A program made the translations under genes and the position numbers. 30,631 nt of DNA. Source: Minisyncoccota bacterium. GTDB taxonomy: Bacteria; Patescibacteriota; Minisyncoccia; Phycocordibacterales; JACOZG01. Shown piece by piece: positions 689-2,574 of the stretch. The notes under the pieces are model-generated. The model saw only the letters and a list, made by a program, of their open reading frames with translations, had not been told where the DNA came from and ran no database searches. The DNA lies in NCBI GenBank assembly GCA_036516635.1, contig DATECC010000024.1:1-30631 (forward strand), written 5' to 3'. The first letter of the stretch is position 1; the number at the start of each line of letters is the position of its first letter.

Positions 689-743
689 AAAATAAAAATA
701 ACAAAAATCCCCGCCCTAAACGCTGACACGTCGGGCGGGGATT
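689..743 (-). terminator. Probable intrinsic terminator of the 782-1378 gene
   Basis: Minus strand reads AATCCCCGCCC-N16-GGGCGGGGATT (11-bp perfect stem, 706-716/733-743), followed by TTTGTTATTTTTATTTT. It starts about 40 nt after the stop codon. Confidence 0.8.
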
Positions 744-781: not shown

Positions 782-1378
782 TTACGCGGTGAGTTCAGAC
801 TCAACCAAAGCAAAATACCGGTCCCATTTCTCGTCCACCAATTGAAAGGCAAGAAGGGCGGCGTGACTGTCTTTCAATTCCCGCCGCCGACAAGCCACAT
901 CTCCGTCCAACTCTTCCTGCAATCCTCGGTCTGTATTTTCCTTTGCTCGGCGCTCGGCTTCCAGTAATTTTCTGACCCGAATTTTCATATTCATCTCGGC
1001 GAGTTCTCGAAGTCCCTTCCAGTTTTCTTGGTACAGCATCTCCGGCGGCCAACTGGAAGGCATTCCAATTGCTAACTTTTCCAGCGCGCGGGTGAATTTT
1101 TCAGATTGACTAAATTTTATTCTTGCACGGGCAATGAAGATTGTCGCCAATCCGAACCAAATAAAAGCACTAATTATCCTAGCCACACTGAAGCAGATAA
1201 AGGTTGTGAGTATAAACACAAGCCCCACCGCCGTCGCCAACAGTGCCAGAAAAATGGGATATCTAACGGTTCTCCGAGTTAGTACCGGATCATAGCCATG
1301 CATCTCTTTCCATTTGCGCCGCAATAGAGTCGGCATTGCGCAATCCTTATCTAACTGTAAAAGATCAATCGCCATCAT
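782..1378 (-). CDS. Hypothetical membrane protein (two adjacent TM helices followed by a charged, probably coiled-coil region)
   Basis: 198-aa ORF with hydrophobic segments IFLALLATAVGLVFILTTFICF and IISAFIWFGLATIFIA. It has a GGAG 5 nt before the ATG, its own promoter and its own terminator. I recognise no family. Confidence 0.75.
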   Translation of the reverse strand: MMAIDLLQLDKDCAMPTLLRRKWKEMHGYDPVLTRRTVRYPIFLALLATAVGLVFILTTFICFSVARIISAFIWFGLATIFIARARIKFSQSEKFTRALEKLAIGMPSSWPPEMLYQENWKGLRELAEMNMKIRVRKLLEAERRAKENTDRGLQEELDGDVACRRRELKDSHAALLAFQLVDEKWDRYFALVESELTA

Positions 1379-1499
1379 AATGGCTCCAGCGGTTTCGGTT
1401 GCCGGAATGGGAGCTTCAGGACTCCACCCTAAATACCACTTCAGACGGCATCGGGCACCTCATTCCAGTCCGTAAAGGAAACCAACTTTACGAATTCTA
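1379..1499 (-). ncRNA. Candidate structured cis-regulatory 5' leader (hairpin plus three-way junction)
   Basis: Hand-folded pairings: 7-bp hairpin 1471-1492; P1 1402-1409/1461-1468; P2 1426-1456 with a UA bulge; P3 1410-1425. It matches no riboswitch class I can recall. Confidence 0.45.
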
Positions 1500-1505
1500 A
1501 TTATG

Positions 1506-1534
1506 ATTGTATATTATGAGTTAAATTTAGTCAA
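1506..1534 (-). promoter_or_regulatory. Sigma70-type promoter TTGACT-N17-TACAAT for the orphan gene
   Basis: Minus-strand -35 TTGACT (1534-1529) overlaps the last codons of pfkB. A 17-nt spacer leads to -10 TACAAT (1511-1506). Confidence 0.7.
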
Positions 1535-2525
1535 ATTTTCGCGGCTGATAATCCGCCGGCGCCACGGCCAGATATTTTTCCAATTGTTCGCGCGTTAAAA
1601 GTCCAGCCTGCGCGCCGATTTGCTGAACGACGGACATTGAGTTAATCGGCGCCCAAACGAAGGCTTCTTCCACACTTTTGCCAAGGGCGAGCGCGCTGAC
1701 GAAAGTGGCGGAAAAAGCGTCGCCGGCGCCGGTGCGTTCAAACGGCGGTTTCGGGTCGGGATAAGGGGGCATAAATAAAATCGTTTGGCCATCAGAAACA
1801 TACGCGCCGCGCGGTCCGTCGGTGATCACCACAATTTTCGGACCGAGCGCGTGCATTTTAGCGAGAAGGGTTTTTATTTCTCCGGTTTCAACTTTTAAAA
1901 TTTTTTGCGCTTCCGGTAAATTGCACAAAAAGATATTCGTTCGCCGATAAAGATCAGCCAAAATATCCGTGCCGAATTTAATTTGAAAAGTGCCAGGTTG
2001 GAAAGCGAGTTGAATTTGCGGCTGGGCGTTCAGATAAGTCGCCAACGATTGATGGTAGGGGAGAGAATGTTCGCCCAGCGAACTCAAATAAAGCCAGCGC
2101 GGCGCGTCGAGATCCGGTAGAACATACGGATACTCTTCGTGTTTGATTAAAATTGTGCGGTCGTCGGCGTACCACAAAACATAATGATAATTGGTGATGT
2201 GGCCGTCGTGGCGGCACACGAAACGCGTGTCCACTTTATTTTTCTCTAAAGTCGCAATGGCCTCTTGACCGTGATAATCTTTACCTAAATCGGTAACCAG
2301 CGCCGTGCGGAGGCCGAGCCGCGCCGCCGCCACGGCGGCGTTGGGACTGTTACCCACCGCCGGCACGACCGTCACCGACTCGTAAGGAATTTTCGCGCCG
2401 AAAGACAAACAAATTTCACAATGTTCGTGATTGATATCGCAATGCAATTCCGCATCTTTTAACCTAATGAAGGCGTCGGTAACAATGTCGCCGACGGTCA
2501 GAAAATCAAATTTTTCTTGTTCCAT
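1527..2525 (-). CDS. PfkB/ribokinase-family carbohydrate kinase
   Basis: Motifs GNSPNAAVAAARLG, VVITDGPRGA and ERTGAGDAF (PfkB anion-hole signature). ATG at 2525 is preferred over the TTG at 2534. Substrate cannot be assigned. Confidence 0.9.
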   Translation of the reverse strand: MEQEKFDFLTVGDIVTDAFIRLKDAELHCDINHEHCEICLSFGAKIPYESVTVVPAVGNSPNAAVAAARLGLRTALVTDLGKDYHGQEAIATLEKNKVDTRFVCRHDGHITNYHYVLWYADDRTILIKHEEYPYVLPDLDAPRWLYLSSLGEHSLPYHQSLATYLNAQPQIQLAFQPGTFQIKFGTDILADLYRRTNIFLCNLPEAQKILKVETGEIKTLLAKMHALGPKIVVITDGPRGAYVSDGQTILFMPPYPDPKPPFERTGAGDAFSATFVSALALGKSVEEAFVWAPINSMSVVQQIGAQAGLLTREQLEKYLAVAPADYQPRKFD

Positions 2526-2574
2526 AATTGACAATTGTATTATAACTCATTTTTTCGTGTTACAATACTGTCGT
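2526..2574. promoter_or_regulatory. Compact divergent promoter region (pfkB-like / fba)
   Basis: Plus strand has extended -10 TGT-TACAAT (2558-2566), 8 nt before the ATG at 2575. Minus strand has TATAAT (2544-2539), 13 nt before the ATG at 2525. Confidence 0.6.

Follow-up and report, generated by a model that had tools for sequence, protein, structure and literature searches.

A conserved, pseudoknotted leader RNA beside the ribosome-binding site of a membrane-protein gene in Patescibacteria

In a Minisyncoccota bacterium, the gene for a 198-aa protein with two transmembrane (TM) helices is preceded by a 120-nt stretch that is a real, conserved and structured 5′ leader RNA. The leader comprises a 5′ hairpin (H1), a three-way junction that carries two near-identical terminal loops, and a pseudoknot in which the H1 loop pairs with the linker just upstream of the Shine–Dalgarno (SD) sequence. 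This loop/linker helix is the main conserved long-range feature. It was absent from the original prediction, which had been made from the letters of the window (the whole stretch of DNA analysed, 30,631 nt) and proposed an undescribed riboswitch or cis-regulatory RNA that hides or exposes the ribosome-binding site (RBS) through helix P3. The broader part of that proposal holds, in that a structured leader with its own promoter and without an Rfam family is a good cis-regulatory candidate; its specific P3/SD switch is not conserved. From these features we infer regulation of translation by the leader, together with its direction and the nature of the effector.

The regulatory RNAs of CPR/Patescibacteria are almost unexplored. 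A search of the literature found no native structured leader described for the group, and a review on these bacteria mentions riboswitches only as possible engineered tools. A binding partner of the leader, once found, would give an orphan two-TM membrane-protein family its first function, and the RBS pseudoknot and the two identical loops provide clear handles for tests. The leader could also serve as a native expression-control element where genetic tools are scarce.

Genomic setting and promoter

On the minus strand, the leader (1499-1379) is flanked by a PfkB-family kinase gene (1527-2534; Pfam E 8.5e-33) and the 198-aa open reading frame (Table 1). The source assembly comprises 526 kb in 98 contigs and is 86% complete; public records list its close relatives as Candidatus Vogelbacteria, which puts the genome among the CPR/Patescibacteria.

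Table 1. Positions of the leader elements and neighbouring signals in the window.
Feature	Position	Strand	Details
Sigma-70-like promoter	1506..1534	-	−35 TTGACT 1534-1529, 17-nt spacer, −10 TACAAT 1511-1506; 10/12 match (consensus scan)
5′ hairpin H1	1471..1492	-	Stem CGUAAAG (1492-1486)/CUUUACG (1477-1471), 8-nt loop UUGGUUUC (1485-1478); MFE and centroid
Pseudoknot 5′ strand GGUUUC	1478..1483	-	In H1 loop; complementary to 1396-1391; covarying
Three-way junction	1402..1468	-	P1, J1/2, P2 and P3; MFE and centroid; covariation in all three helices
P1	1468-1461 / 1409-1402	-	RNAfold
J1/2 AGGU	1460-1457	-	AAGU in most relatives
P2	1456-1446 / 1438-1426	-	UA bulge 1431-1430; RNAfold
Loop L2, heptaloop UCUGAAG	1439..1445	-	Consensus CCUGAAG; CUGAA in 20/23 L2 loops
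P3	1425-1421 / 1414-1410	-	RNAfold
Loop L3 CCUGAA, then G1414	1415..1420	-	CUGAAG core as in L2; CUGAA in 19/23 L3 loops
Pseudoknot 3′ strand GAAACC	1391..1396	-	3 nt upstream of SD
Ribosome-binding region	1373..1387	-	SD GGAG 1387-1384; ATG at 1378-1376 and 1375-1373
Start-codon hairpin GCCAU-UAUG-AUGGC	1371-1384	-	Covers start codon; kept only in closest relatives G002, G005 and L029
Putatively regulated gene	782..1378	-	198-aa protein, two long TM helices, helical cytosolic C-domain ending ...LVDEKWDRYF
Terminator-like GC-rich hairpin with U-tract	703..740	-	After the 198-aa gene; read from sequence; absent from consensus-scan list

The TTGACT-N17-TACAAT promoter of the original prediction is present, with a −35 element that overlaps the PfkB stop codon, and the transcription start site is predicted at about 1499-1497. 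Similar sites recur among relatives. In 17 of the 23 related loci, a promoter-like site with at least 9/12 matches ends between −7 and +7 nt from position 1 of the covariance model; the match is 11-12/12 in eight of these loci and 12/12 in G002 and G030, G002 having a perfect TTGACA-17-TATAAT at the equivalent place. This shared position supports a transcript that begins just before H1. The sequencing runs that contain the locus are DNA from groundwater and soil metagenomes, and no RNA run was found among those listed for it.

The length of the leader had been set against the very short leaders of other genes that head a block. For the neighbouring PfkB gene, the one gene checked, this contrast stands: a TATAAT-like box lies about 13 nt 5′ of its ATG (2520-2565, minus strand), which suggests that its mRNA is leaderless or nearly so, in contrast to the 120-nt leader studied here.

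At the other end, the terminator-like hairpin 3′ of the gene marks the end of the leader-plus-gene unit. This hairpin (703-740) and P2 (1426-1456), both on the minus strand, have GCCCGA...UUUAGGG ends and a UA bulge in common. The likeness is not kept in G002 and is probably coincidental, because the G002 terminator (L002 about 800-855, minus strand) is unlike that genome's own P2.

Fold of the leader

The minimum free energy (MFE) structure from RNAfold is identical to the centroid and contains the hairpin and the helices P1, P2 and P3 exactly where they had been drawn by hand, on the minus strand; both terminal loops indeed carry the CUGAAG core. The junction is tight: P2 adjoins P3, and P3 adjoins P1, without an unpaired base. 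The motif spans ~105 nt of a leader of ~120 nt.

Folding energy of the single sequence alone is not clearly beyond chance: 136 nt of it give a thermodynamic z-score of −1.09 and the 75-nt core one of −1.73, and out of 200 shuffled sequences 13-24 fold equally well. Set against shuffled controls, the yardstick proposed with the original prediction itself, the stability is therefore unconvincing. It is because of its conservation with covariation, and not its energy, that the fold exceeds chance.

ARAGORN finds no tRNA or tmRNA. An upstream reading frame, running from an AUG in P1 to the UGA of L3 (15 codons in the window, G002 and G005), was considered and rejected; 1-nt length changes in P2 destroy the frame in L029 and L024, and on reading the alignment, substitutions in the region track base-pairing, not codons.

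Related leaders and covariation

A BLAST-type DNA search of 60 relatives yields one orthologue, in G002 (77% identity, same genus); a further match in G058 lies inside a coding region and is due to chance. The pairwise alignment of the window with G002 already has compensated changes in every helix. Covariance models, the first built from these two sequences and the second from eight, detect the motif in five further genomes of the family and also in other families of the same order. It is likewise found 5′ of protein homologues from genomes, metagenomes and Logan contigs. The covariance model places the motif at 23 loci, and two more were recognised by eye. A sample of about 150 genomes of the class gave only a false partial match. 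Two model matches were discarded as non-members: L027 (G014), inside an AAA-ATPase-like open reading frame, and L066 (G884), which is without P2 and P3.

Among the 23 distinct leaders, 92.3% of alignment cells are paired, as against 62% with shuffled partners and 36-46% with partners slid by 1-3 columns, and 28 of 30 pairs have changes on both sides; these figures come from covariance-model alignments, which lean towards the model's own structure, and from leaders that are related and hence not independent. Each of the seven pairs in the H1 stem has changes on both sides, with 89% of its cells paired. A model-free alignment of ten sequences (MAFFT with RNAalifold) recovers P1, P2 and P3 as well as the long-range helix and shows compensation in 21 of 29 pairs. 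Covariation in homologous leaders bears the junction out.

Conservation is uneven between the unpaired parts. About 17 of the 23 leaders retain AAGU as J1/2, and the top of P1; the junction strand is replaced in L041 (UAUAAA), L046 (AUAA), L042 (UGU) and L045. The terminal loops are better conserved than J1/2. Helix length is free: P3 of L042 has a 20-nt insertion and P2 of L038 a 27-nt insertion, and both still end in CUGAAG. In five lineages the two loops have changed alike, to CCGAA in G136, CGAA in G046, CGGAA in G738, CUAAC in L064 and CUAG in G069, each present twice; counter-examples are two lineages, L047 and L063, in which one loop only has changed. Comparison of the loop variants with the N- or C-terminal motifs of the protein gave no clean correlation.

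Perfect 4-nt palindromes occur in both loops of two members, namely CUAG in G069 (L048 2069-2215, minus strand) and CCGG in G738 (L058 1312-1430, plus strand), and the usual CUGAAG loop is self-complementary except for a tandem G.A. The palindromic variants hint at loop-loop pairing, possibly between two RNA molecules, and intermolecular dimerisation through the loops is a minor possibility. Intramolecular kissing of L2 and L3 is unlikely: the difference in length between P2 and P3 is not conserved, and neither CCGAA nor CUAAC is palindromic.

The pseudoknot beside the ribosome-binding site

The helix between the H1 loop and the linker occurs among relatives in more than 12 distinct complementary sequence pairs. 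These include GGUUUU : AAAACC, GGUCUC : GAGACC, GGCUUG : CAAGCC, GGCCUGA : UCAGGUU, GCCCGUU : AACGGGU, AGCCUA : UAGGCU, GGCCGC : GCGGCU, CGCUUC : GAAGCG, UUCUUGC : GCAAGAA and GUCGUG : CACGAU. For the 23 leaders, the cognate loop and linker reach a helix score of 5.57, compared with 4.56 ± 0.18 for shuffled partners, and a duplex energy of −7.8 kcal/mol, compared with −5.4 ± 0.4 kcal/mol; none of 10,000 permutations did as well as the cognate partners (p<1e-4). In the pseudoknot-free MFE ensemble both strands are 81-100% unpaired and hence free to pair with each other. RNAalifold, which does not draw pseudoknots, took the long-range helix over the H1 stem. As the stem and the long-range helix are each supported, the two together constitute a pseudoknot.

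The position of the 3′ strand relative to the translation signals is similar in most members. Between this strand and GGAG lie 2-6 nt in the core group; among divergent members, it occupies the SD position in L038 and L039 and stops about 1 nt short of the start codon in L045. In the MFE structure of G046 (L040) the equivalent helix is nested, and the start codon is within it. Of the two possible starts in the window, the second ATG (1375-1373) aligns with the start in relatives.

Alternative pairings with the SD sequence

The original prediction had GCUCC of P3 (1414-1410) either close P3 or sequester the SD-like GGAGC (1387-1383), so that two mutually exclusive folds would hide or expose the RBS. 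The complementarity is real and perfect in the window and in G002, and at least four pairs can form in about 12 of the 23 leaders. It does not outlast comparison with chance: across the 23 leaders, cognate partners score 3.30 and shuffled ones 3.15 (p=0.13). P3 itself covaries freely, and about half of the leaders have three pairs or fewer between the P3 3′ strand and the RBS region, as with GCCGU in G005, GGCCC in G030 and GCCA in G136; pairing is absent in G005, G030, L061, L046, L045, L038 and others. P3 is merely G/C-rich and the SD sequence is GGAG, and forcing the two together in the window costs about 6.8 kcal/mol. A switch of this kind is therefore extremely improbable.

A second candidate, a hairpin between the 3′ strand of P1 and the SD sequence with the pseudoknot strand in its loop (−8.3 kcal/mol in the MFE structure of 150 nt of the window), is not conserved either. 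Only the leaders of the window, L024 and L026 form it, and G002, G005, L029, L060 and others lack it. Thus, neither of these helices provides a mutually exclusive expression platform that is conserved among the related leaders, and no terminator or U-tract lies between motif and gene in the window.

The linked protein family

At every true match the motif stands directly 5′ of a gene for one protein family of ~185-235 aa; this linkage was established over 31 genomes of the family, 151 of the order and 151 of the class, the partial matches L027 and L066 excepted. There is one copy of the motif per genome. The proteins have a conserved N-terminal segment (...LRRxW...DP), two TM helices, and a helical C-domain that ends in GL(V)EE(K)WDxYF. 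Neighbouring genes vary by locus and include those for PfkB, a UvrD-like helicase, LeuRS, an MFS transporter, ThrRS, a PDEase-like protein and GyrB. All five diverse representatives of the protein that were looked up carry the motif, despite different neighbouring genes. With neighbours so varied, leader and gene behave as a single unit that has a promoter and a terminator of its own.

The family comprises at least 164 cluster representatives at 50% identity and is patchy, being found in 13 of 401 sampled genomes of the order and in two of 400 elsewhere in the phylum. Twelve protein matches come from other genomes of the order. Seven of these have the motif by model, L048 has a variant recognised by eye and folding, and in the four weaker or aberrant matches (L049, L054, L055 and L056) the motif is not clearly present. 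In G128 (L053 1084-1842), a family gene lies 3′ of a weak motif match and has an open frame of only 147 aa; it appears truncated or frameshifted at its 5′ end. On the G005 contig, an AbiEii-family toxin gene with a small upstream ORF (L028 5462-6329) is located ~2 kb from the leader-gene unit, and no link between this toxin gene and the motif was seen.

Pfam has no family for the 198-aa protein and returns only insignificant matches to holin, VTT and DUF2207_C. The AlphaFold2 model, made from an alignment of 60 sequences, is all-helical and confident (pLDDT 93). A Foldseek search of this model against the PDB produced no significant match (E≥0.17), nor did the ESM Atlas, by shape (TM<0.5) or by features (below 0.9). 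No RNA-binding fold was recognised in the comparisons of the model with the PDB and the Atlas.

Possible modes of action

Translational control through the RBS-adjacent helix is the most likely mode, since the pseudoknot is the sole conserved connection between the fold and an expression signal. The transcript would start a few bases 5′ of H1 and continue into the compact junction, which displays the two near-identical CUGAAG loops. Pairing of the H1 loop with the linker just 5′ of the SD sequence encloses the junction in an H-type pseudoknot that abuts the RBS and, in some relatives, overlaps it. Formation or stabilisation of this helix would control access of the 30S subunit and hence translation of the two-TM protein, and the state of the fold would be set by a factor recognised through the twin loops.

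This factor may be a macromolecule, which is slightly favoured over a small-molecule ligand: the loops are more conserved than the junction, sit on helices of variable length and change in parallel, and a single gene family is involved. It is possibly the encoded protein, acting as autoregulator of its own leader by repression in the style of S15 or ThrRS; strict co-inheritance and the parallel loop changes are indirect hints of this, and a membrane protein would be an unusual RNA-binding autoregulator. In the core group the SD sequence is outside the pseudoknot, so that occlusion is plausible without being obvious, and the fold could equally act as an enhancer or standby site. Taken as a whole, a leader family of CPR/Patescibacteria in which the pseudoknot gates translation and a factor, rather a macromolecule than a small ligand, acts through the twin loops is given an even chance of being correct.

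The same architecture would also suit an aptamer, belonging to a new class of riboswitches confined to CPR/Patescibacteria, in which a small molecule or ion stabilises the pseudoknot and thereby changes access to the RBS, and the protein acts as a ligand-related transporter, channel or sensor. The 5′ UTR does contain a conserved and covarying fold of aptamer-like form, and ~105 nt with a junction, a pseudoknot and ~15 conserved unpaired nucleotides just 5′ of the RBS is typical of translational riboswitches. The conservation of J1/2 and the top of P1 in most leaders is in keeping with this reading, and the absence of an Rfam match means that the class would be new. Several orphan or ion riboswitch classes are linked to a single membrane-protein family, as is this motif. 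However, the junction strand is replaced in members that keep their loops (L041, L046 and L042), and a fixed pocket would not be expected where the most conserved bases are found, in the terminal loops of helices that vary in length. Parallel drift of both loops is disfavoured by a constant ligand; moreover, only one gene family is linked to the motif, and its protein has two TM helices and no transporter-like fold. A riboswitch is thus a possibility on the unlikely side. If true, these ultrasmall episymbionts would have their first native riboswitch class, and its ligand would reveal the function of the two-TM family, for example as a channel or transporter for that ligand.

Two further readings are less likely. 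A constitutive structure without sensing might protect the 5′ end against RNases, or help a poorly translated membrane-protein mRNA as a ribosome standby site or enhancer of translation. In favour of this, no alternative fold proved to be conserved, the SD sequence of the core group is formally unpaired beside the pseudoknot, and most nearby genes seem nearly leaderless, so that a long folded leader might serve for stability. In hairpins of that purpose it is usually the pairing, and not the loop sequence, that is conserved, whereas here two identical heptaloops and J1/2 are conserved over an order-level spread, more than a stability element needs; this reading is accordingly improbable. It is still harder to regard the motif as an independent RNA gene (a small RNA, an RNP component or a self-cleaving ribozyme) that merely lies 5′ of its partner, comparable to OLE RNA and OapA. 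A small membrane protein that is always inherited with the motif, conserved loops that could bind protein and a compact pseudoknotted fold would agree with it, but the motif is not followed by a terminator or U-tract before the gene, the pseudoknot 3′ strand keeps a fixed short distance from the RBS in most loci, and no Rfam ribozyme family matches. An independent RNA gene is therefore very unlikely.

Comparison with known regulatory RNAs

The leader fold matches no catalogued RNA family and is new to Rfam. Rfam 15 (4227 models, among them every curated class of riboswitch, leader and ribozyme) has no gathering-level match in the 30.6-kb window; within 1200-1700, E<10 is reached once, by a 14-bit match due to chance on the other strand, and seven homologous loci searched at E≤10 have no match on the motif. 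The original statement that no known riboswitch class fits is in line with this. A T-box can be set aside, given the lack of an Rfam T-box match, of a terminator and of an antiterminator, and a leader length of no more than ~120 nt; the GAA-purine core found in both loops does no more than resemble a codon.

By analogy, purine-type riboswitches resemble the leader in that P1 encloses P2 and P3 with conserved loops and that regulation may run through sequence 3′ of P1. The leader differs from them in having one joining strand, an extra 5′ hairpin and a pseudoknot, and there is no sequence similarity. Nor are its P2 and P3 a matched pair with L2-L3 kissing (P2 has about 11 bp, P3 5 bp); a fixed L2-L3 kiss is unlikely, because the difference in length between P2 and P3 varies between members. 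Riboswitches of the preQ1-II, preQ1-III and SAM-II types, all of which are in Rfam, likewise form an H-type pseudoknot with extra helices in a long loop and a 3′ strand at the RBS, and translational control without a terminator would be a further analogy. In the leader, by contrast, the SD sequence is usually 2-6 nt outside the pseudoknot, and a full three-way junction with conserved terminal loops is embedded.

OLE RNA and its membrane partner OapA offer a parallel of another kind, a structured RNA strictly co-inherited with an adjacent small membrane protein. OLE RNA is a stand-alone RNP RNA of ~600 nt in Firmicutes, whereas the leader motif has ~105 nt and is coupled to the RBS of its partner gene; the two are not homologous.

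The leader has the architecture of an H-type pseudoknot operator, with a hairpin loop that pairs, with significant covariation (p<1e-4), to an RBS-adjacent strand. As analogues in function, the S15 and ThrRS operators and pseudoknot riboswitches such as preQ1-II come nearest to it, and it is homologous to none of them. In the E. coli rpsO/S15, thrS/ThrRS and L20 operators, an RBS-adjacent long-range helix or pseudoknot together with defined loops binds a protein that blocks or traps the 30S subunit; in thrS, two anticodon-like hairpins are bound by dimeric ThrRS. The leader shares with these operators the RBS-adjacent long-range helix and the defined loops, which are twinned as in thrS. There is no relation in sequence or family, and the scaffold of a three-way junction is found in the leader only. 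The S15 and thrS operators precede genes for a ribosomal protein or a synthetase, whereas the leader precedes the gene for a membrane protein.
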